DNA from: Patescibacteria group bacterium
Lineage (GTDB): Bacteria > Patescibacteriota > Saccharimonadia > Saccharimonadales > JAZKJC01
Assembly (NCBI GenBank): GCA_040384565.1
Contig: JAZKJC010000008.1
Coordinates: forward strand, 18,049-82,048
DNA length: 64,000 nt
Direction: 5' to 3'
Below are positions 19,056 to 33,120 of this stretch, in pieces. The position numbers were made by a program, and so were the translations under genes. Each line of letters opens with the position of its first letter. Position 1 is the first letter of the stretch. The notes below the pieces were generated by a model. The model did no database searches. It was given only the letters and a program-made list of their open reading frames with translations, and was not told the DNA's origin.

Positions 19056-19165
19056 GCACCAGTATCGTATTACGAAATACGTAGTAGTATAACTGTTAGC
19101 GTCATTATCATGTCCTGACCGTCATACCAACTACGTTATACGTTCTACGCAATCATCCCGGGTAG

Positions 19166-19240
19166 CTCAATGGTGGAGCAAGAAGCTGTTAACTTCGAGG
19201 TTGTCGGTTCGAGTCCGACCCCGGGAGCCAGACCAAGCAC
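19166..19240 (+). tRNA. tRNA-Asn (anticodon GUU) with encoded CCA
   Basis: Cloverleaf folded by hand: acceptor TCCCGGG/CCCGGGA, D-arm GCTC-AATGGTG-GAGC, anticodon loop CTGTTAA, T-arm GTCGG-TTCGAGT-CCGAC, discriminator G then CCA. Confidence 0.85.
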
Positions 19241-19253
19241 TAAGAGAGGTAGA

Positions 19254-19296
19254 CCGGGTTCCTAGACCGGTCTTTCTCTATTTTTGAGCATTACCT
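19254..19296 (+). terminator. rho-independent terminator after tRNA-Asn
   Basis: Stem gagaggtagaccgg/ccggtctttctct, followed by attttt. Confidence 0.55.
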
Positions 19297-19317
19297 ATGA
19301 AATTTTCGCCCCCGTTA

Positions 19318-19350
19318 CGGGTTCGAATCCAGCCCCTGTCTTGTCCGAAA
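19318..19350 (+). other. degenerate tRNA T-arm/acceptor-like fragment (GGTTCGAATCCAGCCCC), a possible relic att site
   Basis: It matches the fragment at 22461-22485 in 15 of 17 positions (GGTTCGAAyCCAGyCC). It has no CCA and no 5' half. Confidence 0.4.
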
Positions 19351-19491
19351 ATGTTGGAACGGTCAAATGACACGAACGATTCCAATTTTTCTCTGCAACA
19401 CGGTTCCGAAACCGACCAGCCCACTATATGGCAACCAGGCAGATTGAAAGCCGACCGGGTTCCATGACCAAGCCCTCGAGTGATGACTTAT

Positions 19492-21189
19492 CTACACGAT
19501 CACACCGTGACATTTCTTATACTTCTTACCACTGCCACATGGACAAGGCTCATTGCGGCCAATCTTCTCCCCAGTTTGCAATGAAAAAACCGTTAATTTA
19601 TCATTAGTGCGCTCCTGCGTGCTAAAATCTAGTCCAAGCGATAGTACGAAATCTTCATAAGCAAAAAGCTCGGGATATTTGTTCTCTTGTCTGAGTAAAT
19701 CTTCGGTAGACTTCTGACCGGCTTTCCGCCGTTCCTTTGCTTCACTCAGTCGTTTTGACTCAAGTAAACGATCAATTTGTTCCGCCTCTTTCTGCGTCTG
19801 TTTATAACCACGTTTATCGCCGAGGTTCTCGTAAGCAGCCAACAGGTAATCCTCGAGGCACTGCAGCGGCCATTCGTCTGGCTCAAGTTCGCCAGCAAGC
19901 ACCCTGACCCAGACTGTATGACTTACGCCTATTGTCTTGTGGTCTTCGCCAGTCTCTAGCAAACCACGGGCAATCCCCATGGCCATCATTTGACTGTGCT
20001 CTGGATAACGCTTGAGTAACTGCTCTAATTGATACTGCCAATTCTTACCTGTAGTAATTCGCCTAATCACATCAGCTACCGCAAAGTCCGGGAAAAAGCC
20101 GCTGGCCAGACCGGCTTCAGCAATAGCGAACATGTGTTCCACAACACCCGATTGCCGAAGCACCTCATACGCTAACAAATCATGAACAGTAGCCCGTAAA
20201 CTTGCAAAATCATGAGGATACTTTTGATATGTTTCGAAGACTGCTTTGTCGGTTTGCTCAAAAGCCCATGCCAAGCGTTCAATAGTGACAAAGTAGAGGT
20301 TGCTGTCGGGCTCAACATCCTCCAGGTCAAAAACGATTGACATAAAAGTCTCCATGAGCGGCCGAGTAATCAAGCGATCCCACAGCACCTCGCAGGCTGC
20401 ATAGAGGTAGTCATCATCGACTTCCCGAGCGTCAGACGCCCGCGCTTTAACTTTGTCAACGATCGTCTCAATAGCATCTCTAACCGGACGACCGATGGCT
20501 TTGAATTCTATCTCATCAAGCTCAATACCCATTTTGGCCAACTTTTTTAGAATCTGCTCGGTCGATGTGGTCTCTAGGTCTTTAGACAATACAAAATCAA
20601 AACGCGGGTTGTCTGCAAGCTTGCGCAGGCTATATTGCAAAAAGTCACCGCGTAGAGCCTGTTCTTGTAGCTTTTGCCCGAAACTATATTGCGGGTTCAA
20701 ATTCAGTGCAATGTTTAGCGCCGCTTCCCCTAACAGTAAACTGCCGTTAAGATACGCTGTTGAGGCGACATTAGCAAAGAGACGATACGGTTCGGCAATG
20801 ATGATACGTTCATCCAGAGCTGTTTGCAACGTCTTAAGCCAGAGCGTCTCGCTTTCCTCCGTGTTGCCACGGCGTAGTGCAGCATCGGCGGACAGCGACA
20901 TTTCAACGATGAACGTTGGATCTATGGTATGTAGCGTAACCCCGCTCAAAGTTGAACGATCTGCATTCAGTGGCTTTGCAGCCTGAAGGATATTGTCAAC
21001 CTCTGATGGTTCCATATTGAGACTGGCTGCCATGCTAATCAATACTGACAGCCAAAGTGGCGCCTTGTCGGCCCCAGCCGTATCCATTTTGCGCCATCGT
21101 TCCAAATCCTCAGCCGTCAATATGCTTTCAAGCTGTGTACCTCGAATTGCGTCGTTGATTGCTTTGGTATTCATTAACGAATCCTCCAT
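19492..21189 (-). CDS. SEC-C motif domain protein (about 565 aa from the internal Met)
   Basis: The C-terminal [17 protein letters not shown] is a SEC-C metal-binding motif. A start at 21189 avoids the overlap with the upstream gene. Confidence 0.55.
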
Positions 21190-21190
21190 G

Positions 21191-21832
21191 TTATTCCAGA
21201 TATAGCTTAGAGAATTTTTTGCCATCAATAACTTGCAGCACCGATCCATCACCCAACGGGGTACCATCTGGCATTGTAGAGAACGTATCTATACACCACA
21301 CTCCATTTTTAACCTCATAACAAGTATCGGTAGGGGTGTGTCCAAATACTTGAGACGTATCCTTGTATATAATACTGCCCCCAGGTCTTGCCCAAATAGG
21401 GCTCATGTCATTCCATAGGCCATCCACATCTTTTAGGCCAGACCACTCATTTGTTATGCCAGCGTGAGAATAAGTAACGCCATCAATTTCGATAATAACA
21501 GGCAGGCCAGCAAGCCACGCTTTCACATTTTTATTTTCTAGGGCATCGATTAAAATTTGTGTCATAGGATTGTAGCCAGATTGCAATGAAGGCGTATTGT
21601 TGACATATATGTAGTCGTGATTACCTGTAACAAGCTCAACCTTGCCTTGGTTTTTAGTCTGCAGATCTTTTAGAGTATTCCAAGTGTTTAGGGTATCTTG
21701 CGGACTAGCGCTAAAGTCATCCGCATAATCACCACAGAAAATAACCTTATCATAAACGTTGTTGAGTTTAGCGACTTTCTCAATAATCCATATTTTTGTG
21801 TGAATGTCGCCCATGGCGAGTACTTTTGCCAT
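21191..21832 (-). CDS. calcineurin-like metallophosphoesterase (lambda-PPase-like)
   Basis: Motifs GDIH, GDYADD and GNHD are present. Confidence 0.75.
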
Positions 21833-21853
21833 AATTTACGTGCAGGCGACTAG

Positions 21854-22201
21854 TTACGCCCGTCCGTGCAATTTTCGTATACGTGCCCGTACCGATTCTT
21901 GATACTGTGTAGGGTTTTGCATTTGGTGATAGGCACGAACAGCGATAACCTCAAAACTATCATCATCTACAAGGTAAACAACTGCGACTTTGTAATTTTT
22001 CATCTGCATCTTACGTACATCTGGGTCATCTTTGAACACGACGTTAGCTCGTGGCAAGTTTTCCAAGTTCGCTACGGTTTCCATAGCTTCATCGAAAAAA
22101 TTCGCTGCCGATTCAGCGTCCACTAGTTCTTCATAAAATGCCATGAGTTCAGCGATATCGTTCTCGGCATCTTCTGTAAGATTGACGCTATACTTTTGCA
22201 C
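21854..22201 (-). CDS. type II toxin, RelE/ParE family
   Basis: 115 aa. The C-terminal YKVAVVYLVDDDSFEVIAVRAYHQ block fits RelE/ParE. It overlaps a small upstream ORF. Confidence 0.65.
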   Translation of the reverse strand: MQKYSVNLTEDAENDIAELMAFYEELVDAESAANFFDEAMETVANLENLPRANVVFKDDPDVRKMQMKNYKVAVVYLVDDDSFEVIAVRAYHQMQNPTQYQESVRARIRKLHGRA

Positions 22202-22376
22202 CAGCCAGCTCCTGATATTTTTTTAGAATATCTTTCTTGGCCTGGCTGAGCGGTATACGGTTTTTAGGATTTTTAGCATGTTTAATGCGTCGCTCCAGCT
22301 CAAGTAGAAACTCTGGGCTGCTTTCATCTACATTAATGACTTTGCTACTATTCATACTTTTATTATACCTTATCAC
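22188..22376 (-). CDS. putative antitoxin partner of the ParE-like toxin
   Basis: 62-aa ORF overlapping the toxin start by 14 nt, the classic toxin-antitoxin arrangement. Confidence 0.5.
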   Translation of the reverse strand: MIRYNKSMNSSKVINVDESSPEFLLELERRIKHAKNPKNRIPLSQAKKDILKKYQELAGAKV

Positions 22377-22452
22377 ACGTAAAAATACGCGTAAAAACTT
22401 GATAAATAACGGATGTGAGCTATCATTAAGCGAGTCTAAAATCGGATGGTAA

Positions 22453-23967
22453 TTAAGTTTGGTTCGAACCCAGTCCGGGGAGCCAATTTCCAGATTTAGC
22501 CATGTCTGTTAGAGCATCAAACGGCTCTAACAGATTAAAAACTAGCTTTTCACCGTCTAGTTTGGCGTTAGGAAGTACTAAATTGAGTAGGTATCGTTTT
22601 TGTTCCAGTTTCGTACTTTCTGCTGCTAACAGTTCTGCGCCTCGGCTTGCGACATCTAAAATGTATGACGCACCGATAACAAAAGCCTTGTCGCCGTCTG
22701 CGTGGTCAGCAATTTGCTGTGCTATGTCTTTTTGCTTTGTTTCAAGGTCTTTAACCATAGATTCAAACAGTTGGTGCCTATGAGCAAACTGTTTTCTGTC
22801 ACTAAACAAGTCTTTAATATCTATGTCTATCTGGTCATGTTCTCTTTGCAGACGTTTTTTATTGGTTAAGTAATGTTTCTGCTCTGAATCGTGGTTACGC
22901 TCAATTTCAGCAACAATTTCGGGCATTACTTGCTCTGGTACTTGAAAGCCAGTAAAGACTTCCATGACTTGGGCTATTAGTTTGTCTTCGTTAACAATCT
23001 TTGCACCATGCTTACCGCCGTACTCTGTACAGCGCATTAAGTTGTACTTATCTTTTTTGCGGTCTGTCGTAATGGTATAGCCACAAGTGTTGCACTTTAA
23101 GTTCTTAAACAGAAACTGCCTACCATACTTGGTACGGTGCAAGGCTCGTTGCTCTTTGACTTCTTGGCACCTGTCCCAAATCCAGGGCTGCACAATAGCA
23201 CCGTAGTGGTGGACGTAGATGTTGCCGTCATAGCGCATTTTGCCGTAATAGAATGGGTTCTTAAGTATTTCTTCCCACTGACCACGAGTAATAGCCTTTT
23301 GGAGCTTGGTATTGCTTACCAGACCGTCATTCTTTAATTCTTTAGCAATCATAGCGAATGACATGCCAGTTGAGCGCAGCTCAAAGCCTTTGGCAATGTG
23401 ACGGCTGCGTACTGGGTCAGGTTTGATATGCCTAATATCATTACCGTTGGCGTCCTTGCCCTTAACATAGTTGATGTAGCCAATAGGGGCTTTGCCTGGC
23501 CATTCACCGTCTGCCAGCTTTTGGTCAAAACGGCGTTTAACGTTGTCCCGTATTGCGCTGGAATAGTAGCCAGCAAGTGCTACGCCAATATCTAGGCGAA
23601 ACAAATCGGCTGCTGGTGAGTTTTTATGAATGTACAGATTATCTGACGGGAAGTGCATTTCAATGCGTCCTTGCCGAAATAGTGCAGTCAAAACTTGCTT
23701 TTCTTCTGACGAGGAGTCACGGCTAAAGCGGTCAATTTTATCAAAAACTACGATTGACAGGTCTGTTGCTTCCATTAAAGGCTGCATAACGCTTTCTCTG
23801 AACTTTTTGCGTGTATCTTTGAACGCTGTTTCGTCAAACTCTACGTAAATGTAATCCTTATCTTCAATCCATTTTTGTTCTTTCGCGTAGTCTTTTAGTT
23901 TTTTTGTTTGGGCGGGAAGTGCTTCCCGTTGTACTGGGTCTGATACCCTTGCTATTAAATAATTCAT
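22453..23967 (-). CDS. large serine recombinase (resolvase/invertase-type catalytic domain, recombinase domain and zinc ribbon)
   Basis: The N-terminus YLIARVSDPVQ carries the catalytic Ser. A recombinase-domain block (PIGYINY...) and CNTCGY...C zinc-ribbon cysteines are also present. Confidence 0.85.
   Translation of the reverse strand: MNYLIARVSDPVQREALPAQTKKLKDYAKEQKWIEDKDYIYVEFDETAFKDTRKKFRESVMQPLMEATDLSIVVFDKIDRFSRDSSSEEKQVLTALFRQGRIEMHFPSDNLYIHKNSPAADLFRLDIGVALAGYYSSAIRDNVKRRFDQKLADGEWPGKAPIGYINYVKGKDANGNDIRHIKPDPVRSRHIAKGFELRSTGMSFAMIAKELKNDGLVSNTKLQKAITRGQWEEILKNPFYYGKMRYDGNIYVHHYGAIVQPWIWDRCQEVKEQRALHRTKYGRQFLFKNLKCNTCGYTITTDRKKDKYNLMRCTEYGGKHGAKIVNEDKLIAQVMEVFTGFQVPEQVMPEIVAEIERNHDSEQKHYLTNKKRLQREHDQIDIDIKDLFSDRKQFAHRHQLFESMVKDLETKQKDIAQQIADHADGDKAFVIGASYILDVASRGAELLAAESTKLEQKRYLLNLVLPNAKLDGEKLVFNLLEPFDALTDMAKSGNWLPGLGSNQT
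22456..22485 (+). other. tRNA 3'-end-like fragment (T-loop, T-stem, acceptor, discriminator, CCA) overlapping the recombinase stop; putative att site
   Basis: The sequence ggttcgaacccagtccggggagcca has no matching 5' tRNA half upstream. On the opposite strand the same nucleotides encode the last 11 codons of the recombinase (GNWLPGLGSNQT). Confidence 0.5.
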
Positions 23968-24047
23968 TTATTGTATCCTTACTATTATTTTATGATTTAC
24001 CTCTGATAATTACTACCAGTAAGGGGGAGATAAACTCCCCCATGTGC

Positions 24048-24500
24048 CTACGCTTCCAACAGTCCAATGAGCTTCTGCTGTTCGTCTGCCGATATAAGTG
24101 GCTCATGTAAGCCCTTATACAGTTCTTCACCGCTACGTATCAAGCCGATATAGTACGGATTGGTAACGATTCGTTTTATGCTAGCCTTACTGCGAATATC
24201 TAATGATTCACCGCTTAAAAGGATAGATAACCGTAACCTAAACTCCTCGGTAGAAATCTTACCGTTGGCTGCTTCCTGCATTACTACACGCATAGCCATA
24301 CCTCTACGGGTTATGCGGAACAATCCGCTAGTTTCTGTAGTTGAGTAGCCAAAAGGTGGACGCCGTAGTGCATATCCAGCTTTGGCTAGATTCTGCATTG
24401 CTGTCTTTGTATTTTCACACGCTGTTAGGCGTTGATATTCAGCTATCACTGACATAAAATCTTTCATTATCTTTTCTGTTGCTTCTTCTTGCTTATTCAT
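24048..24500 (-). pseudogene. truncated serine-recombinase-like ORF (C-terminal and recombinase-domain portion only)
   Basis: 150 aa. The block AGYALRRPPFGYSTTETSGLFRITRRG resembles the recombinase domain of large serine recombinases. No catalytic N-domain is encoded upstream. Confidence 0.4.
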
Positions 24501-24594
24501 TATTTGAACTCCATTTAATTTAAGTTATTGTTGCGCAAGGGCTATGCTGTGTTGCTGTTAGCCTAACCGCTTGCGTCTATGTAAGTGTGATATG

Positions 24595-24780
24595 TTATTT
24601 CTCTGGCTCTACCTCGCTTTGCGTCTTAGTGTTCCGCCAGTCCTGGTGCTGTTTATCCAGCACAATTAGGAACTCTATGTAGCGCACAAGGTTAAACTTA
24701 ATTTCCTTGTATTGCTGTTCGGTTAGCTGCTTGTCATAGAACTTTTCAAACAGCGCCTTAGCGTCGGGTTGCTTACTCAT
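24595..24780 (-). CDS. hypothetical small protein
   Basis: 61-aa ORF overlapping the next gene's start. Confidence 0.3.
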   Translation of the reverse strand: MSKQPDAKALFEKFYDKQLTEQQYKEIKFNLVRYIEFLIVLDKQHQDWRNTKTQSEVEPEK

Positions 24781-25765
24781 TTTCAGCCCCTGTTTCTAAG
24801 CTGTAGTGTATGTTTCTACCTACGCCTTGTGTTTCTTTTACCAAGCCTTCTTCAAGTAGTTCTTCTAGTAGCTCACGCAATTTATGTTCGTTGATTTTTA
24901 CGCCTTGCTGCTTTAAGCTCGCAAGCAACTCTTTTTGAATTGGTTGCTGGTTTTCGCTTAGCTGCGTAAGAATTGTGTCTTTTAGCATTTGACGCTTCTT
25001 ATCTGATATATTCACTTCGCCGTCGTATATGAGCTGAAACGAATCATCATCCGCGCTTATTTCTACTTCAAACTTACCTAGCTCTGGGGCATAGCGGTTT
25101 TTAGTCTGATGTACTACTAAGCTGTCTTTGCGCCGACTTATAGCTACATGGCTGTCTATTGACGCTGGAATGTCTGACGAGCCACGCATTGCGTTAAGCC
25201 CACTATCGGCATTTACGCCAGGCTTACGATTGTGGTGTGTCAGTATCAGCGTAATGTCCTGCGCAGTAAACTTCCTAAGTTGCTTAAACACTGCTGCCAT
25301 TTCGCCAGAACTGTTTTCGTCACTGGCATGTATGCGCACCAGGGAATCTATGATGATTACCTTGATGTCCCGTATTGCACACTCAATGAGTGTTTCGGCG
25401 ACTGTTTCGTTGCTTAAAACGAAACCAGGCTGTGGACTAAAGTAAATTGGTAAATCCGCTAGTGCGCCGAGCATAAACAGACGTTCTTGGACGAGCCGTT
25501 GGCTGTTTTCTTCGTCTATTATCAGCACTCCACTTTGCTTTGTTGCAAACTCACCGAATAGTGGTTCGCCCCTAGCTACGCTTATTGCTGTGTGTAGCGT
25601 TATCCATGTTTTGCATGACGCTGGTGCGCCCGAAAATATCGTTATAGCTGCGTCTGGCACAAGCTTGTCCACGAGCCATTTCTGGGGCGGAAAGTTTTTG
25701 TGCATTAGTTCTTGTATTGTTAGTAATTGGTCCATATTGGAAACCTTTCGTAAGAAGCTATCCAA
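24773..25765 (-). CDS. RecA-family (AAA_25/RepA-like) ATPase with a C-terminal winged-helix domain; mobile-element replication or mobilisation protein
   Basis: Walker A GAPASCKTW and Walker B VIIIDSL. The C-terminus LRELLEELLEEGLV resembles a wHTH. Confidence 0.6.
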   Translation of the reverse strand: MDSFLRKVSNMDQLLTIQELMHKNFPPQKWLVDKLVPDAAITIFSGAPASCKTWITLHTAISVARGEPLFGEFATKQSGVLIIDEENSQRLVQERLFMLGALADLPIYFSPQPGFVLSNETVAETLIECAIRDIKVIIIDSLVRIHASDENSSGEMAAVFKQLRKFTAQDITLILTHHNRKPGVNADSGLNAMRGSSDIPASIDSHVAISRRKDSLVVHQTKNRYAPELGKFEVEISADDDSFQLIYDGEVNISDKKRQMLKDTILTQLSENQQPIQKELLASLKQQGVKINEHKLRELLEELLEEGLVKETQGVGRNIHYSLETGAENE

Positions 25766-25911
25766 CGGAACAGGTTGTTATTGGTGTTGGACGGCTTCTT
25801 TTCCCGTTCCACAATCATCATCTCAACTAATAAAGGAGCTGTGATTCAGCCCCTAAACAACACGGTTTAGTTACGGTTTTCTAATCTGCTATAAACGTAT
25901 GTTTAACGATT

Positions 25912-26802
25912 TTATTCGGTGTTTTTTCGGTAGCTTTTTATAAGCTCAACGTAGACTTTTTGCTGCTGTGGCGCAAGTTCTTTTACTGGCGTAAAGCGCA
26001 CGGTCTTCTTGCTCGTACCTGCAAAGAATATGTCTTTAAGCTCTTTATTAAATCCTTGTAATCTAATTACTTCGGACAGGTCTTTATAACTTTGGCAGCC
26101 GTCAATAAGTTGAATGTCGCCAATGCCAATGTTCTGGTTAGTATGAGTTTGTACGTAGTGCATTAAATTATAAGGACCAGAATCTACACGCAAGTTTTTA
26201 ATAGGAAATAATTCTTTGCCTTTAATACCAATGAGTATTCGCGTGCCGTCTATCTTTACTTCGGCATACATTATTTGCGCAAGCGGGGCGGTATCAGTAC
26301 GGCGCACTGTCGCTCCAAATGCTTGGCAAGTTTCGTCTGTCGGTTTTATTGCTTCAATGATAATAAGACCTTTAATTGCTACAGCCAACAGTGTTTCTAC
26401 AAACTTTTTACTATTACTGGACTGATTACCCTTAATGTCCCTAGCCGTATTTGAAGTACCTAGCTTATTAAGCAATCGTGTTTCGTGCTGCGCATACAAT
26501 GTAATGGAATTGCCAGTGGGTGCAAATATACGGTCAGACTGGAAATACTCAATATAGCTATTAACCATATCCTTAAACCACCTGGTATCGGCAGTCTGTA
26601 CGGCACTGTCTATGCTTTCAATCCTGGCTTCATTTACCAGCTTCTCTAGCACTGCTGCACAGTAGTCTTTATTGTTCGGGTAACCAATAAAGTCGGTCAG
26701 TAAGCCTTGCAGCTTTTCTTGGTCAGCTTGAACATAGCCACTAAGCAAGGCGTAGATATACAGCAAACGGCTGTCCCAAAACTGCGTTATAGGCATTTTC
26801 AT
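25912..26802 (-). CDS. hypothetical protein (296 aa) of the mobile-element module
   Basis: ORF only. Confidence 0.4.
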   Translation of the reverse strand: MKMPITQFWDSRLLYIYALLSGYVQADQEKLQGLLTDFIGYPNNKDYCAAVLEKLVNEARIESIDSAVQTADTRWFKDMVNSYIEYFQSDRIFAPTGNSITLYAQHETRLLNKLGTSNTARDIKGNQSSNSKKFVETLLAVAIKGLIIIEAIKPTDETCQAFGATVRRTDTAPLAQIMYAEVKIDGTRILIGIKGKELFPIKNLRVDSGPYNLMHYVQTHTNQNIGIGDIQLIDGCQSYKDLSEVIRLQGFNKELKDIFFAGTSKKTVRFTPVKELAPQQQKVYVELIKSYRKNTE

Positions 26803-27249
26803 GTCTGCAATTATTGTAAATCATGGGCTAGATTGTGCCGAATCGGTAAGTTTTATGCTTAACCAGTAAAAATGCCATTCTTCACTGATATTGCTCTGTT
26901 CTTGGCAATTTTAGTTATAAATATAAACACGTCTATTTCGGGGATTTGTCTGCTTTAGTGCCAGCAGCAGCATGTAGGTTTCTAATCATTGCGTAAACAG
27001 CGTGTTCTTTTGGGGGCTTTATGTGCGACATGTCTGGTATTCGCCGTTTCATTATCATTTGCAGTTTTAGTTTGCTTTGCTCGTCCATATACTAATTATA
27101 GGACAGTTCAACATAGCCTGTAGAGGACATTTACAGCCGATTTAAGCTGATTTATTGCCTTTAACGACTAACTCTACCAAAAGCCCCGCAAACTCCGCAA
27201 TTATAAGAGTAATTGTTGTATAGTTATATCAGACTGCAAAGGAGTTAAC

Positions 27250-28230
27250 ATGAAAGTAAAAGTATCCGAATTAAAAAACAATGTCTTAGCTGGTGTTTCT
27301 AAACTAGGCTACGAAGACCAAGACGCACAAACTATTGCAGATGTACTCCTTTACGCCCAGCTTCGTGGCAATAATCAAGGTATAACTAAGATTGCTACTG
27401 GTGGTGTGCCTAAGGCTAGCGATGTAAAGCCACTGGAAGTTGTAAAAGAAAACAAGTGTGGTGCTTTGCTATCGGGTGGACATTCAATGGTGGCTACTGC
27501 AAAAGCCGCACAAATGGCAGCAGATTTAGCAGCGCAGCACGGCGTTGGAGTGGTAGCTTCTAACCATACCTTTACTTCATCTGGCGCAATAGGCTATTTT
27601 TCACGACAGATTGCTCAACAAGGTTGTATTGGCTTTGTCTGTGTAGGAAATGGCTCATTTGCTTTTGTTGCCCCAAGTGGTTCAGCAGAGGCTAAACTCG
27701 GTACGAATCCATTCTCTTATGCGTTTCCGTACAATGGTGGCGAAGTGGTCTTTGATAATGCAACTGCTGCTATGGCATTTTTTGGAATAGTTGAAGCCAA
27801 GCTAAAAGGCGAAGCCCTGCCAGAAGGTATTGGGTTTGATAAAAATGGCAGTCCTAGCACAGACGCAGCCGAAGTATTGGACGGCTCAATTTCAACCTTT
27901 GCAGAGCATAAGGGCTTCGGACTTTCTCTATTTGTGCAGTTGCTCGGCAGTGCCTTTGCGCTAGCTGGTATGCCAGGTGCGCATGAAGATGACGGCGCAG
28001 GTACATTCGTAATGGCGATTGACCCTGGATTGCTGGCTGGTAAAGATGAGTATATGAAACGAGCTACAGAACTTGTTAACAGCGTTAAGGCTGCTAAACC
28101 ATTACCAAATAAAAGCGTTTTATTACCTGGTGAACATGGTGACACACTTGCAAAACAAGCAGAAGAAAGTGGCGAAATTGAAATTGCTGACGCTATTTGG
28201 AGCGAACTTACAGCATTTGTGAGTAATTAG
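27250..28230 (+). CDS. Ldh_2 family (malate/L-lactate dehydrogenase family 2) oxidoreductase, the family that includes ketimine (Pip2C/Pyr2C) reductases
   Basis: 326 aa with family-characteristic blocks (HSMVAT, ASNHTF, GTNPFSYAFP, AEHKGFGLS). Confidence 0.75.
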   Translation: MKVKVSELKNNVLAGVSKLGYEDQDAQTIADVLLYAQLRGNNQGITKIATGGVPKASDVKPLEVVKENKCGALLSGGHSMVATAKAAQMAADLAAQHGVGVVASNHTFTSSGAIGYFSRQIAQQGCIGFVCVGNGSFAFVAPSGSAEAKLGTNPFSYAFPYNGGEVVFDNATAAMAFFGIVEAKLKGEALPEGIGFDKNGSPSTDAAEVLDGSISTFAEHKGFGLSLFVQLLGSAFALAGMPGAHEDDGAGTFVMAIDPGLLAGKDEYMKRATELVNSVKAAKPLPNKSVLLPGEHGDTLAKQAEESGEIEIADAIWSELTAFVSN

Positions 28231-28237
28231 GTAGCGT

Positions 28238-29206
28238 ATGAACGATAAACGTATTCTTATACTTGGTGCTGGTGTATCTGGGCTATCTACGGGTATTTTA
28301 CTGCTCAAAGACGGTTACGGCGTTGATATTTGGGCTAAGGATTTACCGCCCAATACTACGTCAAACATAGCTGCTGCTGTTTGGTATCCATACCTTTGCA
28401 ATCCCAAAGATAAGGCAGCCAAGTGGAGCGGTTTTACACTCAAGTATCTACAGCAAAATACGCTTAACGACCCTGATAGCGGTTGCATAGAAAGAACCAT
28501 TACCGAGGTGTTTGACAAAAAGGTAGATGAACCCTGGTGGCAGGAAGCTGTTACTGAATACAGACGACCTGCTCAAGGTGAACTTCCAGCAGGATATGTG
28601 GACGGATACCAAACCAAAGCAATTTTAATGGACACTACCTTTTATATGGACTGGTTACTCAAGCAGTACAAAGAATTAGGTGGCGCCCTTGAGCAGAAGA
28701 CCATAGAGGATATACAAGAAACATTTAATCAGTACGATATTGTCGTTAACTGCACAGGTTTAGGCTCAAAAGAGTTATTTAATGACGATAGAGTATTTCC
28801 CGTTAGAGGACAGGTTGTTTACGTTAAGCCGAATGGCTTTGAGGAAGTAGTGGCAGATGATGACGGACCTAATAATCTTGCCGTTATTATTCCTCGTATT
28901 AACGACATTGTATTAGGTGGAACTGCACAACCGAATAATTGGAGCTTGGAAGTAGACCCTAAAGATACAGAAGACATTTTAAGGAAAGCAAAATTGTTAT
29001 CACCCGCATTTAATGACGTAGAGGTTATCGGACAAAAAGTGGGTTTGCGTCCAGCAAGAGACGAAGTTCGTCTAGAAATAGAAAGGTTTGGTAATAAAGC
29101 TGTCATACATAACTATGGACACGGCGGTGCTGGCTATACACTGTCCTGGGGTTGCGCAAATGATGTTAAAGAGTTGGTAAAGGGACTCGGCTCCCTACAA
29201 GCGTAA
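28238..29206 (+). CDS. D-amino-acid-oxidase-family FAD-dependent oxidoreductase
   Basis: N-terminal Rossmann ILILGAGVSGLSTG, and the C-terminal HNYGHGGAGYTLSWGCA block typical of DAAO. Confidence 0.75.
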   Translation: MNDKRILILGAGVSGLSTGILLLKDGYGVDIWAKDLPPNTTSNIAAAVWYPYLCNPKDKAAKWSGFTLKYLQQNTLNDPDSGCIERTITEVFDKKVDEPWWQEAVTEYRRPAQGELPAGYVDGYQTKAILMDTTFYMDWLLKQYKELGGALEQKTIEDIQETFNQYDIVVNCTGLGSKELFNDDRVFPVRGQVVYVKPNGFEEVVADDDGPNNLAVIIPRINDIVLGGTAQPNNWSLEVDPKDTEDILRKAKLLSPAFNDVEVIGQKVGLRPARDEVRLEIERFGNKAVIHNYGHGGAGYTLSWGCANDVKELVKGLGSLQA

Positions 29207-29391
29207 ACTGTTTTGCATTTTACAAAATATGTGCTATATTATAAAACTATGAAAGCAATTTCAATATCAGCCGTATCATTTTTTACAGTCTCTACTCACG
29301 GAGGCATTGCTAACTTTACCCAATAAATAAAGCAAATCAACAAAACTTAAGCCTCCAACCAGGAGGCTTTTTTAATTCATAAGGAAAGATT

Positions 29392-30402
29392 ATGTCAAAA
29401 CTTAAACCAAGAGAAATTGTAATGGACGCTGTAGGTGAAAGCACTACGGCAGATGTCCTATACCCACAAATAATAGTCAACCACGAAGCAGTACCGTTAG
29501 AAAGTGAGGAACAATTAAAGGCTTGGGCTGTAGGAGCTGCTACGGTCAATGCACTGATTAAGTCTAGCGACAGACGTGCTATAAACGACCAGTTATGGCG
29601 TTACTGTGCTGCACCTGACGACTACCCTTTGGAATTGCGTACTATTTACGGTGGTTCAGAAAATCCACATTCAGTTGACGTATTAGACTGGGCTTTGCCT
29701 TCATTAGCTATCGCAGCAGCAATGCAAAGATACGGAATGAGTCCTAGTGTGTCTGTACTTAGTGCAGATGAAGCTTCAATAAGACTTAACGGTCTTCAAG
29801 CAGAAGCCACCACGCAGCACACCAACGATACCCTACAGTTAGTTGAGCGAGTTGGTAGGCGTTACTATCCTAGCGTAGACCTAGAAGTTGGACGTTTAAC
29901 GTGGGACGAATTAACTGCTGAACCATATTCAGACGATGTTGATTTACTACGTAGTCAACAGCTCGGAGCTTCGGTAGTAAAAATAGTAAGCGGTCTTGAG
30001 GAAATGGTACAAAAGCGTGGCGGTGATATAGATAGTGTCTCGGCATACCTCGGTTTACATAACACTGCATACGCTATTTACACAGGCAAGCCCACCATAA
30101 AGATAGCAGGAGCGTCAGAAGAACGCTTCACTGTAATTCAACGTGAGCTAGCCGCAGCTCACTCTGAAATAACTGGCACTAAAGACATAGACAATAAATC
30201 CTGCTTAGTGGCTGGGGTTATACATGATAGCCCAAGTACGGCTCCGTACTATGTACAGGCAGGAATAAAAGTACCAAGTGTACTAGAAAGAATAAACGGA
30301 ATGGACTACCCGCTAGATATTCTGGCTAAGGAATATGGTCTTGGTCGTGTTGCAAGCAGAATAGCCGCTCTAAATATGAACCCACAAGAGGGCTTAGTAT
30401 GA
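29392..30402 (+). CDS. hypothetical protein (336 aa) in the aaRS-like cluster
   Basis: No recognised motif. The stop overlaps the next start by 4 nt. Confidence 0.5.
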   Translation: MSKLKPREIVMDAVGESTTADVLYPQIIVNHEAVPLESEEQLKAWAVGAATVNALIKSSDRRAINDQLWRYCAAPDDYPLELRTIYGGSENPHSVDVLDWALPSLAIAAAMQRYGMSPSVSVLSADEASIRLNGLQAEATTQHTNDTLQLVERVGRRYYPSVDLEVGRLTWDELTAEPYSDDVDLLRSQQLGASVVKIVSGLEEMVQKRGGDIDSVSAYLGLHNTAYAIYTGKPTIKIAGASEERFTVIQRELAAAHSEITGTKDIDNKSCLVAGVIHDSPSTAPYYVQAGIKVPSVLERINGMDYPLDILAKEYGLGRVASRIAALNMNPQEGLV

Positions 30403-31343
30403 AAATGTATATTGAACCACTAAAGAAAGATGTTCTTGACCGCTACCTTGACGTTCAAGACTTAACCCAAGCTGCTGAACCACATGCAGTTAAGTTGTTG
30501 TACCAAAAAATAGAAGACTATATGCGAGCAGCTCACCCAGACAGCAAAGTTATTGTATATCGGCAAAATCCAGTAGTACCTGTTGAAGATAACTACGATA
30601 AATTGCTAATCGGTAAAGATAACATTAGTCGTTCATCTACTTACACGCACTATGCTGACGACACCCACATTCTACGAACCCATACGTCTGCACATATGCC
30701 CCAAATACTTGAGGACTTAGCTAGACGAGATGACTGGAATGATGTTGTTGTTCTATTACCAGGTTTGGCGTACAGACGAGATGTTACAGACAAAACGCAC
30801 TTAGGTGTACTGCACCAGCTAGATATGTGGCGTGTCATTAAGAATAGTCCTGACAAGCCAGCTATTGTTAAAGACGACCTACTAGATGTAGTTAATGGAG
30901 TGGCAAGTGTTGCTGCACCAGGCTGGAAATTACGAATTGTAGATAACCCACACCCGTATACAAAAGGTGGCATTGAAGTTAATGCTGTAAAAGACGGGCG
31001 AGACATTGAAATACTTGAGTGCGGTTTAACGAGCGACCAATTATTGCAAGACTCTGGCTTAGACCCAAATAAGTATTCTGGTTGGGCGTTGGGTATGGGC
31101 TTAGACCGCTTAGTAATGACACTCAAGGCTATTCCAGATATTCGTTACTTGCGTTCTACTAACCCTGACATTGCTAAACAAATGGTTGATTTGACTCCCT
31201 ACAATGAAGTGTCACACCAGCCGAGTATCAAGCGTGACATGTCCTACAGTGTGCCCAAAGGCTATGTTGAGGAAGATATTAACGAGGACATTCGTAATGC
31301 ACTTGGCAATGATATGAATATATTGGAAAGCGGGAAGTCTTGA
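30399..31343 (+). CDS. mitochondrial-type monomeric phenylalanyl-tRNA-synthetase-like class II catalytic core
   Basis: Motif 2 ILRTHTSAHMPQ and AYRRDVTDKTHLGVLHQLD (compare the mito-PheRS block VYRRDQIDSQHYPIFHQLE). Motif 3 is GWALGMGLDRLVM. The C-terminus DMSYSVPKG matches the start of an FDX-ACB domain. Confidence 0.7.
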   Translation: MKMYIEPLKKDVLDRYLDVQDLTQAAEPHAVKLLYQKIEDYMRAAHPDSKVIVYRQNPVVPVEDNYDKLLIGKDNISRSSTYTHYADDTHILRTHTSAHMPQILEDLARRDDWNDVVVLLPGLAYRRDVTDKTHLGVLHQLDMWRVIKNSPDKPAIVKDDLLDVVNGVASVAAPGWKLRIVDNPHPYTKGGIEVNAVKDGRDIEILECGLTSDQLLQDSGLDPNKYSGWALGMGLDRLVMTLKAIPDIRYLRSTNPDIAKQMVDLTPYNEVSHQPSIKRDMSYSVPKGYVEEDINEDIRNALGNDMNILESGKS

Positions 31344-31531
31344 GTGAAACACTAGCGGAGCAGCTTCCCGACAAAATAAAAGAACGGCTTGGCTGTAAGC
31401 CTAATCAGAAAAATATACTAGTGCGGATTACTCTACGACATCTGGAAAAGACGCTTACAAAAAAGCAAGCCAACGACATCTATGACCATATTTACGGCAA
31501 AATAAATTACGGTACAGGCGGATACCTGTAG
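31340..31531 (+). CDS. FDX-ACB (ferredoxin-fold anticodon-binding) domain fragment continuing the PheRS-like gene in a shifted frame
   Basis: ILVRITLRHLEKTLTKKQANDIYDHI matches the FDX-ACB signature (...RITYRHMERTLSQREV...). It starts at a TTG overlapping the upstream TGA. Confidence 0.55.
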   Translation: MSETLAEQLPDKIKERLGCKPNQKNILVRITLRHLEKTLTKKQANDIYDHIYGKINYGTGGYL

Positions 31532-31543
31532 AAAGGCTATAAT

Positions 31544-32590
31544 ATGAATATGAAATACAGTTTTTATGACGACTACACCGAAGGCGCTCACCCAGAAATC
31601 CTAAAATACATAAGTGAGCATAATTTAGACCAACAACTAACATACGGGCGAGATGAGTATAGTAAGTTGGCTGCTGAAAGAGTAAACAAAGCATTTGGCA
31701 CAAATAATGCAGACGTACATTTCTTGCCCACTGGCACTGTCTGTAATGTCATAGGATTAAAGTCTATGCTTCGTGCTATTGAAGGGGTTATTGCGCCAGC
31801 AAGTGGTCATATAAACACCCATGAAACAGGTGCTTTAGAAGCTCACGGACATAAGATTATTTGGGTTGATACGCCTGACGGCAAGCTCACACCAGCCTTA
31901 ATAGACAAGGCTCTAGCTCTCTACGAAGACGAGCATACAGTAATTCCAAAAGTTGTATATCTGACCCAGGTAACTGAACTCGGCACTGTTTACACTAAAG
32001 AAGAACTCAAAACTGTAATTGACTACTCCAAATCAAAGGGTCTTTACACATTCCTAGACGGCGCACGTTTAGCTATGGCAGTCGCTAGCAAAACAGCTAA
32101 TATGACAATGGAAGATGTCGGCAATCTTGGGCTTGATATGTTCTACATCGGTGGCACTAAAAACGGTGGTATGTACGGCGAAGCGTTGGTTATACAAAAC
32201 GATATATTCAAGAAAGACTTCCGCCATTTTATAAAGCAGCGTGGCGGTATGATGGCTAAAGGTCGTTTTATTGGTCTACAGTTTGCTCGGTTCTTTGACG
32301 AAGATAACTTATGGCTTAACCTGGCTAACCATGCTAATGAAATGGCACAGTTGTTATTTAACGGTCTACAGGAACTAGGAATTGAGTTTGACCTTACGGC
32401 AGACGCGAACCAGGTTTTTCCAATCTTAGACAACAAAGTCTATGAGCAGTTGAGCCAAGAGTATGGCTTTTACCCCTGGAATAAAGTTGGTAATGATAAA
32501 ACTAAAGTACGTTTTGTTTGTTCATGGGCTACGCCTAAAGACCAAGTTGAAGCGTTAATTGCTGACGCAAGAAAGATTACCCAACAATGA
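31544..32590 (+). CDS. threonine aldolase family PLP-dependent enzyme (beta-eliminating lyase superfamily)
   Basis: 348 aa. HFLPTGTVCN aligns with FLPTGTQAN of low-specificity threonine aldolase. The N-terminal YSFYDDYTEGAHPEIL block and a GGTKNG Lys region also fit. Confidence 0.7.
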   Translation: MNMKYSFYDDYTEGAHPEILKYISEHNLDQQLTYGRDEYSKLAAERVNKAFGTNNADVHFLPTGTVCNVIGLKSMLRAIEGVIAPASGHINTHETGALEAHGHKIIWVDTPDGKLTPALIDKALALYEDEHTVIPKVVYLTQVTELGTVYTKEELKTVIDYSKSKGLYTFLDGARLAMAVASKTANMTMEDVGNLGLDMFYIGGTKNGGMYGEALVIQNDIFKKDFRHFIKQRGGMMAKGRFIGLQFARFFDEDNLWLNLANHANEMAQLLFNGLQELGIEFDLTADANQVFPILDNKVYEQLSQEYGFYPWNKVGNDKTKVRFVCSWATPKDQVEALIADARKITQQ

Positions 32591-33120
32591 AGTTTGGCAA
32601 ATTAGACTTCGCAGATGTTAGCCAGCATTCTAACTTAGTAGCTGCGCCGACAGATGAAGCAATTAAACAGCATGACCTTTCAGATGTTCTAGTTGCAGAA
32701 ATTGACGCTGAAGTAGCGGATACAGCAGCTTTCTGTGAAGCTTACGATATTGGAATGGACATATCAGCCAATTGCGTTGTCGTTGAAGCTAAAAGAGCCG
32801 ATAAAACGTGGTATGCAGCTTGTTTAATCTTAGCTACCAATCGGGCTGATATAAACGGCGTTGTAAGACGACACTTAGACGCTCGTAAAATATCTTTTGC
32901 GCCTATGGATACAGCAACCTCGCTGACAAAAATGGAGTACGGCGGTATCACCCCAATCGGTTTACCAGAGGACTGGCAGTTAATTGTTGACGAAGCTATT
33001 ATCCAAAAAGAGCGAGTAATAATCGGTAGCGGTATTCGTGGCTCAAAATTACTTGTAGAAAGCAGCATTTTTTCTAAACTGCCTAATGTTGCTATCAAGG
33101 ATATTGCAAAAACTAGTTAG
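32587..33120 (+). CDS. YbaK/ProX-family aminoacyl-tRNA trans-editing deacylase-like protein
   Basis: 177 aa. The C-terminal block GGITPIGLPEDWQLIVDEAIIQKERVIIGSG matches the YbaK/ProX deacylase domain pattern. Confidence 0.65.
   Translation: MKFGKLDFADVSQHSNLVAAPTDEAIKQHDLSDVLVAEIDAEVADTAAFCEAYDIGMDISANCVVVEAKRADKTWYAACLILATNRADINGVVRRHLDARKISFAPMDTATSLTKMEYGGITPIGLPEDWQLIVDEAIIQKERVIIGSGIRGSKLLVESSIFSKLPNVAIKDIAKTS

Follow-up and report, generated by a model that had tools for sequence, protein, structure and literature searches.

The 64-kb stretch of DNA analyzed here (the window) comes from a Patescibacteria metagenome-assembled genome (MAG) and carries, on a mobile island, a gene for SrmL, a ligase related to phenylalanyl-tRNA synthetase (PheRS) whose truncated product is GenBank V4702_03080 (314 amino acids, aa). 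We consider it probable, with some reserve, that the SrmL operon is a back-up system for charging tRNA-Phe that is induced by a shortage of Phe-tRNA and lies in a mosaic region of three units. This reading was drawn from the Phe-codon leaders that precede SrmL genes, the FDX-ACB anticodon-binding domain of the ligase, the tRNA-Phe genes that flank its phage relatives and the AlaX-like genes that recur downstream of it. The three units comprise six plus-strand open reading frames (ORFs): an Ldh_2-family gene with a D-amino-acid oxidase (DAO) gene (27250-28230 and 28238-29206), a leader followed by the gene of a 336-aa protein and SrmL (29392-30402 and 30399-31343), and a threonine aldolase gene with a YbaK-like gene (31544-32590 and 32587-33120).

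A preliminary description of this DNA had taken the six genes as one self-contained module for a non-canonical amino acid. Its six ORFs and both of its 4-nt overlaps (30399-30402 and 32587-32590) were confirmed, and the domains it had named were recovered with Pfam (Ldh_2 2e-66, DAO 1e-35, tRNA-synt_2d 1e-27, Beta_elim_lyase 1e-30 and tRNA_edit 7e-17); the 336-aa protein that it had called unknown has indeed no Pfam or NCBIfam match. It was also right in pointing to an unusual synthetase in mobile DNA, and the possible tie to amino-acid-modifying enzymes is partly supported. The self-contained module itself was not supported, given that two of the genes are resident, the ligase family is already catalogued, this copy is frameshifted and the regulation points to phenylalanine. 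Nor do the six genes form one unit, because a promoter-like site, a 25-codon leader ORF and an intrinsic terminator separate the DAO gene from the 336-aa gene; what stands is that the left-hand genes recur together, in the combinations Ldh_2-DAO-336aa, DAO-336aa and 336aa-SrmL. Caution is called for in such regions, as tight co-directional packing beside an insertion site made unrelated resident genes resemble pathway members.

The SrmL ligase and its split gene

The SrmL gene of the window is found in two parts:

30399..31343, plus strand: SrmL catalytic core, 5' part of the frameshifted gene (NF051887, 338 bits; tRNA-synt_2d; equals V4702_03080)
31337..31531, plus strand: SrmL C-terminal FDX-ACB part, in another frame (matches NF051887 positions 291-347, 58 bits)

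The 314-aa ORF scored 338.3 bits against the NCBIfam family NF051887, "PheS-related mystery ligase SrmL", and passed its cut-off of 300 despite the truncation. With the same ORF the model of bacterial PheS alpha (TIGR00468) gave 77.4 bits against a cut-off of 237, and that of mitochondrial PheRS (TIGR00469) 157.5 bits against 258. An intact relative (P0001) reached 410 bits on NF051887 and 170 bits on TIGR00469, and full-length SrmL-type relatives, including a phage copy, scored 367-443 bits on the SrmL model and 114-170 bits on the pheS_mito model, again below 258. The best solved relative of the SrmL family profile was human mitochondrial PheRS, matched at 1e-35 over both the catalytic and the anticodon-binding domains, whereas bacterial PheS alpha was matched at 1e-22 or more weakly. 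The motifs cited in the preliminary description for a synthetase that tracks mitochondrial PheRS and not ordinary PheS (ILRTHTSAHMPQ, AYRRDVTDKTHLGVLHQLD and GWALGMGLDRLVM) are present in the window, and that assignment was borne out. Across the SrmL family the ATP-binding arginines of motif 2 (YRRD) and motif 3 (GLDRL) are invariant and the FDX-ACB domain is conserved, as in class II enzymes that charge tRNA. Judged from these features SrmL is a single-chain PheRS-like ligase of the mitochondrial type, with a class II core and an FDX-ACB domain and with no beta subunit. A literature search found no paper on SrmL, which is known as an NCBIfam family by name alone, and searches for monomeric PheRS in Saccharibacteria or the Candidate Phyla Radiation, or for mitochondrial-like PheRS in bacteria, returned nothing relevant.

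SrmL shares with human FARS2 (PDB 3CMQ/5MGH; TIGR00469) its two-domain layout of a PheRS core and a C-terminal FDX-ACB domain without a beta subunit, and it keeps the LRTHTSAH, YRRD and G.GLDRL motifs. In contrast to FARS2 it has no insertion between the two matched stretches, stays below the cut-off of TIGR00469, and is bacterial or phage-encoded, accessory and mobile. It differs also in the substrate pocket, where FARS2 has FPF and FHQLEG and SrmL has HPY and H[QM].D.W. In PheRS the two Phe residues of FPF sandwich the ring of the substrate. We inspected this pocket, as the preliminary description had proposed, and found the Phe-selecting FPF replaced by HPY; the window sequence reads HPYT and HQLDMW and not the FPF/FHQ.EG of PheRS. 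HPY is invariant in 19 aligned SrmL sequences and is also present in the phage and Paceibacteria subgroups, and FHQ.EG has become H[QM].D.W. Such a remodelled pocket may alter affinity, inhibitor sensitivity or specificity.

The preliminary description had the synthetase ORF continue into its FDX-ACB domain. Both domains are indeed encoded, but the ORF stops at 31343 and the remainder lies in another frame at 31337-31531. Alignment of the DNA to relatives placed a single-base deletion near 31335, where the window reads GAAAGCGG-GAAGTC and the relatives GAAAGCGTAGAAGTC; across this junction SrmL relatives read LESVEVLSET. Among the best 120 relatives listed nearly all are 371-386 aa long, with few truncated or extended, and intact relatives have 376-377 aa. 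The window does not encode SrmL as a single intact polypeptide. Compared with NF051887, the window C-terminus, though displaced, matches the end of the model, and the difference is that the window copy is split. The change occurs at a G run, the downstream frame is open to the normal stop, and elsewhere the gene shows no other lesion and shares 82-92% identity with intact relatives. From the alignment, the 1-nt deletion that splits the gene would mean that it is either decaying or mis-assembled.

Phe-codon leaders ahead of SrmL

The 185-nt gap between the DAO gene and the 336-aa gene contains, after a promoter-like site, a 25-codon ORF; an intrinsic terminator (29349-29369 plus a T-run) follows 17 nt ahead of the start codon of the 336-aa gene. 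Its elements are:

29212..29240, plus strand: promoter-like site TTTGCA-17-TATATT with upstream TG (pattern scan, consensus match only)
29249..29326, plus strand: leader ORF MKAISISAVSFFTVSTHGGIANFTQ, 25 codons, with FF at codons 11-12 (29279-29284)
29287..29375, plus strand: attenuator RNA (covariance model R1, 133 bits)
Attenuator segments: segment 1, 29287-29293; segment 2, 29300-29305 (GGAGGC); segment 3, 29351-29356 (GCCUCC); segment 4 and U-run, 29362-29375

Each of the five loci with a 336-aa gene has this leader region in conserved form, the TTGCAT...TATGCTATAAT stretch included. We built the covariance model R1 from these five leaders and obtained 19 matches at E <= 0.02 in 18 loci, 18 of which are credible leaders; the weakest match (26.7 bits, the second one in locus L073) lacks the core segments and was set aside as probably spurious. 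The 18 leaders, hereafter type 1, are located directly upstream of SrmL, of a PcfJ-like gene followed by SrmL, of the 336aa-SrmL pair or of the 336-aa gene alone. In each of the 16 type-1 leader ORFs that could be read, FF is kept at the same position (as FFFF in L021) and its codons vary synonymously, within a peptide consensus of MK.IS...FF.S..GG.A.F. Alternative 1:2, 2:3 and 3:4 helices were predicted in 18 out of 18 leaders, with a 2:3 duplex of -10 to -14 kcal/mol. Segment 2 lies inside the ORF, reads GGAGGC or GGGGGUC and, by way of synonymous Gly codons, changes in step with both segment 3 (GCCUCC or GCCCCC) and segment 4. In the model alignment 88% of cells are paired, compared with 40-57% when the partners are slid, 13 pairs are compensatory, and none of 500 shuffles reached the observed values. 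No further type-1 leaders were found with a second covariance model (R2), and Rfam, run over the whole window, returned the tRNA only; it has no family for the type-1 leader.

A second SrmL clade carries leaders of another kind (type 2) in nine loci: L005 (9824-10000), L009, L011, L012, L013, L014, L016, L018 and L019. These lie about 160-180 nt upstream of SrmL and contain ORFs of 31-36 codons that end in runs of Phe codons (e.g. ...SQSFFFFGFFAA and ...VNFFFFGFFAA, up to FFFFGFF). Their stop codon falls within a conserved hairpin, GCUGCC-UAG-CAGC, behind which comes a U-rich tail.

The comparison systems are the attenuators of pheST, pheA and trp in enterobacteria; trp, phe and his share one logic. 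The SrmL leaders resemble pheST (pheM), pheA (pheL; RF01859) and trp in having a short ORF with tandem codons of the sensed amino acid, mutually exclusive 1:2, 2:3 and 3:4 hairpins and an intrinsic terminator just ahead of the regulated gene. With pheST they further share a regulated gene of the PheRS type. As in trpL, which has two Trp codons, two Phe codons are present in type 1, whereas type 2 has up to six. In contrast to the enterobacterial attenuators, the SrmL leaders are found in Patescibacteria, are predicted from sequence and would control an accessory gene instead of a housekeeping synthetase. Relative to the RF01859 Phe_leader, the type-1 leader has no significant match in sequence or structure and looks like an analogous element.

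Taken together, the leader appears to sense a shortage of charged tRNA-Phe, and its regulation points to ordinary phenylalanine and tRNA-Phe and not to a non-canonical amino acid. The attenuation mechanism that we infer would work as follows. The short leader peptide with its tandem Phe codons would be translated ahead of the 336aa-SrmL operon. When charged tRNA-Phe is scarce, the ribosome would stall on the Phe codons and cover segment 1, segment 2 could then pair with segment 3 as an antiterminator, and transcription would continue into both genes of the operon. With ample Phe-tRNA-Phe, segments 3 and 4 would pair to form the terminator. SrmL would in turn raise the supply of aminoacylated tRNA-Phe, because genes under such attenuation normally do, and could act as a back-up or alternative PheRS, for instance under phenylalanine limitation or when the alpha2beta2 enzyme is inhibited.

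Relatives, neighbours and the island

A scan of species-representative genomes (one genome per species) returned a complete set of 61 loci, about 40 of which are SrmL; the gene is thus found in about 40 such genomes from Saccharibacteria and other Patescibacteria. Its surroundings are hypervariable (671 ORFs fall into 505 clusters), and a Pfam survey of its neighbours (96 downstream, 76 upstream) found none to be dominant, the commonest families being PcfJ (5, all in one clade), LigT-type 2H phosphoesterase (3) and AlaX-like (2). The preliminary description had proposed to check whether the cluster is conserved: none of the 46 loci in species-representative genomes that encode an SrmL-type or related monomeric gene has any of the five window neighbours nearby. 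In the closest clade (82-92% identity to the window) a PcfJ-like protein of 247-250 aa precedes SrmL. Both belong to small elements in which a large serine recombinase, a rolling-circle-type Rep and SpoVG are also encoded; in L065 the element adjoins tRNA-Asn. Two MAGs contain two SrmL copies each (L006 and L008; L017 and L024). SrmL is accessory and mobile, because its distribution is sporadic, it occurs in double copies within MAGs and it is located in small recombinase elements. Several contigs end within 36-600 nt upstream of SrmL, a hint that the DNA at the leader is repeated or varies between strains. Genes after SrmL encode LigT-type 2H phosphoesterases and a HEPN protein in L017, L020, L030 and L069, and a baeRF_family10 protein (L009/L010, 11313-12080), which is release-factor-like and ribosome-hibernation-factor-like, is encoded directly downstream of SrmL.

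More distant relatives with the same pocket were also recovered. An HPY-type subgroup with 45-49% identity is found in Paceibacteria-like genomes among gyrB, thrS and dnaE. Two phage contigs of 415 and 578 kb from IMG/VR carry SrmL-type genes (L077 9723-11323 and L081 9815-11086) with the HPY pocket and 38-41% identity, the former scoring 443 bits on NF051887; both sit in arrays of 26-29 tRNA genes, with tRNA-Phe(GAA) as their immediate neighbour. Up to 15 synthetases per huge phage have been reported, with the suggestion that they serve the tRNAs of the phage itself (Al-Shayeb et al. 2020, PMC7162821). The phage SrmL-type genes fit the arrays described there in lying inside tRNA arrays, beside tRNA-Phe. 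The window SrmL differs in that it is on a small chromosomal integrative island with no tRNA-Phe nearby and has a leader attenuator, which the phage genes lack. Monomeric PheRS-like proteins of 340-344 aa with the FPF pocket and FDX-ACB were found as well, in Bacteroidota MAGs (L042-L046) and in huge phages (L078-L080). The two that were scored pass the TIGR00469 cut-off of 258 (L042 with 310 bits and L078 with 373), and by sequence these FPF-type proteins look like true monomeric PheRS, a group separate from SrmL.

AlaX-like genes lie directly downstream of SrmL in L073 (5411-6136), L086 (3921-4364) and L025 (11219-11938), on separate branches of the SrmL tree, and one is 2.4 kb upstream of SrmL in L041 (6855-7574). 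The two of these proteins that were scored (L073 and L086) are below the AlaXM cut-off (117 against 300). By analogy with free-standing trans-editing proteins (AlaX; YbaK/ProX), such genes may replace the editing site that monomeric SrmL lacks; AlaX-like neighbours would fit a monomer without an editing domain. The window, in contrast, has as its editing-family neighbour a YbaK-like gene, which is common, resident and not linked to SrmL. The idea of a trans-editing factor beside the synthetase therefore stands for the AlaX-like genes that accompany SrmL elsewhere, and not for YbaK, whose linkage was seen in none of 80 loci.

The gene that overlaps SrmL in the window is the following:

29392..30402, plus strand: 336-aa protein, stand-alone class Ic aminoacyl-tRNA synthetase-like catalytic domain of a new family, without HIGH or KMSKS

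Models of the 336-aa protein show a catalytic fold of the Rossmann type, as in class I synthetases, that matches TyrRS, TrpRS and cyclodipeptide synthases, and a shallower model agrees on it. Profile searches of Pfam (including tRNA-synt_1b), NCBIfam and PDB sequences gave no match. The family has invariant motifs of its own (GGS after strand 1, Y..xH, K..G..E and PYY). By inspection, strand 1 is followed by YGGSENPHSVDVLDW and not by HIGH, and the last strand by KIAGASEERF (KxGGxGE in remote relatives) and not by KMSKS. We take the GGS after strand 1 to be at the position of the Gly-x-Ser nucleophile of cyclodipeptide synthases. The protein differs from class Ic synthetases (TyrRS, TrpRS) and cyclodipeptide synthases in its lack of sequence-level similarity to them, in its motifs and in an N-terminal helical extension. 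On the strength of the models it is best regarded as a new class Ic synthetase-like family without ATP-binding signatures. We also considered it as a diverged counterpart of the PcfJ-like partner, to which it showed no similarity.

Close homologues of the 336-aa protein are rare, with seven among 5.8 billion clusters. Gene orders are DAO-336aa in L084, Asp/Glu-type racemase-336aa-SrmL in L082/83 and IS66 transposase-336aa-SrmL-AlaX-like in L086/87, and the 4-nt overlap of 336aa and SrmL is kept in the window, L082/83 and L086/87, on two separate branches of the SrmL neighbour-joining tree. An exhaustive profile search recovered remote relatives: P0249, in L168/L169 (e.g. L169 380-3335), is overlapped by an amino-acid racemase and followed by a genuine TrpRS, and a second one is overlapped by a class III aminotransferase. 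The P0249 locus adjoins the genes of ribosomal proteins L17, L13 and S9. These neighbours, together with the absence of ATP motifs, suggest that the 336-aa protein could act on aromatic amino acids or on aminoacyl-tRNA.

The two genes of the left-hand unit are:

27250..28230, plus strand: Ldh_2-family 2-oxo/2-hydroxy-acid (or imine) oxidoreductase (Pfam 2e-66)
28238..29206, plus strand: D-amino-acid/D-aspartate oxidase homologue (PDB D-aspartate oxidase 2.5e-48; D-amino-acid oxidases about 1e-46)

The flavoenzyme was correctly placed in the D-amino-acid oxidase family by the preliminary description, as it matches solved D-amino-acid and D-aspartate oxidases over its full length (residues 2-314; 6rkf 2.5e-48, 1dao 3e-46). 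The DpkA-type ketimine reductase proposed for its partner was not supported. The best PDB match of the Ldh_2 protein is L-sulfolactate dehydrogenase (1e-37), with DpkA (1wtj) weaker at 2e-20; the protein is nearer to sulfolactate, type-2 malate/lactate and ureidoglycolate dehydrogenases than to DpkA, and all NCBIfam equivalogs were far below their cut-offs. DAO adjoins the 336-aa family in both L084 and L085, and L085 has a 66% identical Ldh_2 copy in the same order, Ldh_2-DAO-336aa.

The island that contains these genes, and its left edge, were defined by synteny:

19156..19230, plus strand: tRNA-Asn(GUU), left edge of the variable island (ARAGORN; Rfam 63.6 bits)
19231..31531, no strand: island DNA of about 12.3 kb between tRNA-Asn and the threonine aldolase gene, not in syntenic L089
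22453..23967, minus strand: large serine recombinase (Pfam Resolvase, Recombinase, Zn_ribbon_recom)
24773..25765, minus strand: AAA_25 (RecA-like) ATPase with a winged-helix C-terminus (Pfam AAA_25 3e-29, HTH_12)

The mobile module described on the left, with its serine recombinase and AAA_25 ATPase on the minus strand, was confirmed; the ATPase is, by its domains, a presumed replication or maintenance module of the island. When the window was compared with L089 by tblastx, the GT2, GH42-like, SmpB and tRNA-Asn genes matched up to about 19.2 kb and the match resumed at 31532. In L089 the tRNA-Asn (98.7% identical to that of the window) is followed by a recombinase remnant, one unrelated gene and the aldolase-YbaK pair, and no island genes. 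About 12.3 kb appear to have been inserted in the window, because L089 has the same flanks without the island genes; the recombinase domains are consistent with this, and the island edges rest on the synteny of this single locus. SrmL is the last gene of the insert, which is integrated beside tRNA-Asn and downstream of smpB. The smpB/tRNA-Asn site is an integration hot spot, because SrmL follows smpB also in L025 and L082. In L065 tRNA-Asn abuts a serine recombinase gene, and serine recombinases related to that of the window adjoin SrmL in L004, L012, L020, L062 and L065.

Other features of the island were noted in passing. A 150-aa Recombinase-domain fragment (24048-24500, minus strand) adjoins the intact serine recombinase and is probably the remnant of a second element, comparable to the tandem elements of L065. 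About 70 nt past tRNA-Asn, GGGTTCGAATCCAGCCCCTG (19295-19340) resembles a tRNA T-arm and acceptor end, is called by neither ARAGORN nor Rfam and may have been left by an earlier integration. Encoded on the minus strand in the left part of the island are a 591-aa protein with a C-terminal SEC-C motif (19492-21267) and a calcineurin-like phosphoesterase (21191-21832), which have weak PADLOC matches (PDC-S12/E2-like and PDC-S10, respectively).

To the right of the island lie the following genes:

31544..32590, plus strand: L-threonine aldolase, resident flank gene (PDB 1svv 9e-89; syntenic in L089 and L092, both without SrmL)
32587..33120, plus strand: YbaK/EbsC-superfamily protein, 177 aa, resident flank gene (Pfam tRNA_edit 7e-17)

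The aldolase gene starts only 12 nt past the corrected SrmL stop. The preliminary description had counted both genes as members of the module; they are present at the same tRNA-Asn locus in L089 without the island, and this pair consists of resident chromosomal genes and not of island cargo. The aldolase is, by its close PDB match, an ordinary L-threonine aldolase. The YbaK-like protein passes the tRNA_edit cut-off (62 bits against 25.5) and fails that of the YbaK equivalog TIGR00011 (37.6 against 153), and is only distantly related to characterized YbaK. Its family is large and common among Saccharibacteria: each of the 8000 candidates scored passed E <= 0.001. SrmL, the 336-aa gene, DAO and Ldh_2 were found in none of the 80 metagenome loci that carry a YbaK homologue; the aldolase is upstream of that homologue in two of the 80, one of them L089. 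Directly past the YbaK-like gene a 592-aa protein is encoded (33165-34943) that has a sub-threshold NCBIfam match to the antiphage GapS1 family (60 against 320 bits) and no Pfam or PADLOC match. A defence-system reading was dropped, PADLOC being negative for SrmL, the 336-aa protein, YbaK, the AAA_25 ATPase and the GapS1-like protein.

Weighing the explanations

Several observations weigh against the back-up charging of tRNA-Phe. The SrmL of the window is frameshifted, so the operon may be non-functional here. The pocket changes, together with Q-to-M and E-to-D in motif 2, leave room for a different amino acid, and the altered pocket keeps open one other than plain L-Phe. A permissive search with the RF01859 Phe_leader model hit 29263-29376 at chance level (24.6 bits against 55, E 0.96). 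Type-1 leaders hold just two Phe codons, rarely four, and constraints on RNA structure explain part of the conservation of the leader peptide. No such leader is found on the distant HPY-type subgroup (L032-L038) or on the phage copies. A canonical pheS/pheT next to which SrmL would be the back-up was not seen either: tblastn with two PheS/PheT pairs over the window and every fetched locus found only SrmL, which agrees with the earlier statement that pheT is absent from the window and extends it to a second pheS. As to the island, neither a repeat of the tRNA-Asn 3' end nor direct repeats between the island ends, as att sites, could be detected.

The frameshift leads to the most serious of the other explanations, namely that the SrmL operon is dead cargo in this genome, a pseudogene left by a real 1-nt deletion and without current function. 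We regard this as possible, although the odds seem to be against it. The deletion removes most of the anticodon-binding domain, the GenBank annotation is a 314-aa hypothetical protein, and a recombinase fragment (24048-24500) is also present in the island. On the other hand, the rest of the gene has kept its 82-92% identity to intact relatives with no more lesions, the downstream frame is open to the normal stop, and a change at a G run could be an assembly error. The changed pocket underlies a different proposal, in which SrmL would load tRNA-Phe with a substrate that is not L-Phe, such as Tyr, meta-Tyr, D-Phe or a hydroxy acid, and so feed a tRNA-dependent small-molecule pathway with the 336-aa protein as its cyclodipeptide synthase-like enzyme or aminoacyl-transferase. 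HPY replaces FPF family-wide, the 336-aa protein has a TyrRS/TrpRS/cyclodipeptide synthase-like fold without HIGH and KMSKS and with the GGS presumably at the nucleophile position, the two genes are translationally coupled in three contexts, and the neighbouring oxidases and racemases are possible tailoring enzymes. Yet more than 90% of the SrmL contexts seen are without the 336-aa partner, the 336-aa gene occurs without SrmL in L084 and L085, and a pathway draining tRNA-Phe would call for the reverse of induction under scarcity of the charged tRNA; we therefore think this proposal unlikely.

Still less can be said for the six-gene module, in which Ldh_2, DAO and aldolase would make a non-canonical imino or beta-hydroxy amino acid, SrmL would charge it and YbaK would proofread, and which we judge very unlikely. 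It draws on the tight co-directional packing, with only 12 nt from the corrected SrmL stop to the aldolase, on the remodelled pocket and on the recurrence of D-amino-acid enzymes with the 336-aa partner, but it is largely refuted by synteny, as aldolase and YbaK occupy the L089 locus without the island. SrmL is moreover near a YbaK homologue in 0 of 80 loci, a promoter and a terminator divide Ldh_2-DAO from 336aa-SrmL, the aldolase is ordinary (9e-89), Ldh_2 is not closest to ketimine reductases, and the Phe-codon attenuators point to canonical Phe-tRNA supply. Finally, the 25-codon ORF could be the precursor of a ribosomal peptide that the 336-aa protein and SrmL modify in a tRNA-dependent manner, the hairpin only adjusting how much precursor mRNA is made relative to that of the enzymes. 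The peptide encoded by the small ORF is conserved, and a terminator-like hairpin separates this ORF from the enzyme genes; however, the residues conserved past FF are encoded where the RNA is paired, the terminator arm varies in step with synonymous Gly codons, the unrelated type-2 leaders consist mainly of Phe runs, as is typical of attenuators, and many leaders precede SrmL alone. This makes a peptide precursor hardly credible.

The back-up charging of tRNA-Phe thus remains our preferred reading of the SrmL operon, with tRNA-Phe as the substrate and Phe as the amino acid that we infer from the leaders and the phage neighbours. Auxiliary inducible synthetases are known from Streptomyces (trpRS1, with ribosome-mediated attenuation), from Bacillus (thrZ and tyrZ) and from plasmids (ileS2/mupA). 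SrmL, as proposed here, would resemble such paralogues in being a second synthetase that is horizontally transferred and induced when charging of its cognate tRNA is low; it differs in being a monomer where the housekeeping enzyme is alpha2beta2, in having no known inhibitor or stress and in an activity that is predicted. Duplicated aminoacyl-tRNA synthetases are very frequent (PMC4787780).

A bolder extension of this reading, which we put forward tentatively and with considerable doubt, concerns both proteins of the operon. The 336-aa protein would found a class Ic-like family that acts on aminoacyl-tRNA without ATP, as a Ser-nucleophile deacylase or transferase for D- or mis-aminoacylated aromatic tRNAs, and that works with SrmL or TrpRS and with racemase or D-amino-acid oxidase partners under an attenuator that senses Phe-tRNA. 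SrmL, with its altered pocket, would serve mobile elements and huge phages as a portable one-gene PheRS that keeps tRNA-Phe charged.

Three things are new here: the attenuator, a partner family of class Ic-like proteins found in a D-amino-acid context, and a functional hypothesis for SrmL. To our knowledge no leader-peptide attenuator has been described in the Candidate Phyla Radiation, although we did not search the literature for one, and the leader would be a new family of ribosome-mediated attenuators in this group. With the 336-aa protein the class I synthetase-like superfamily gains an unannotated branch that is consistently linked to D-amino-acid enzymes. The Phe-codon leaders and the phage tRNA-Phe neighbours provide the first concrete and testable clue to the function of this "mystery" ligase. 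The two-gene bacterial PheRS has roughly 1100 aa, and host-dependent Saccharibacteria cannot make amino acids. If our reading is true, a one-gene PheRS-type enzyme of 377 aa carried on islands and by huge phages would be a compact bypass of the two-gene bacterial PheRS, with relevance for amino-acid-dependent Saccharibacteria, for resistance to PheRS inhibitors and for the engineering of orthogonal synthetases.

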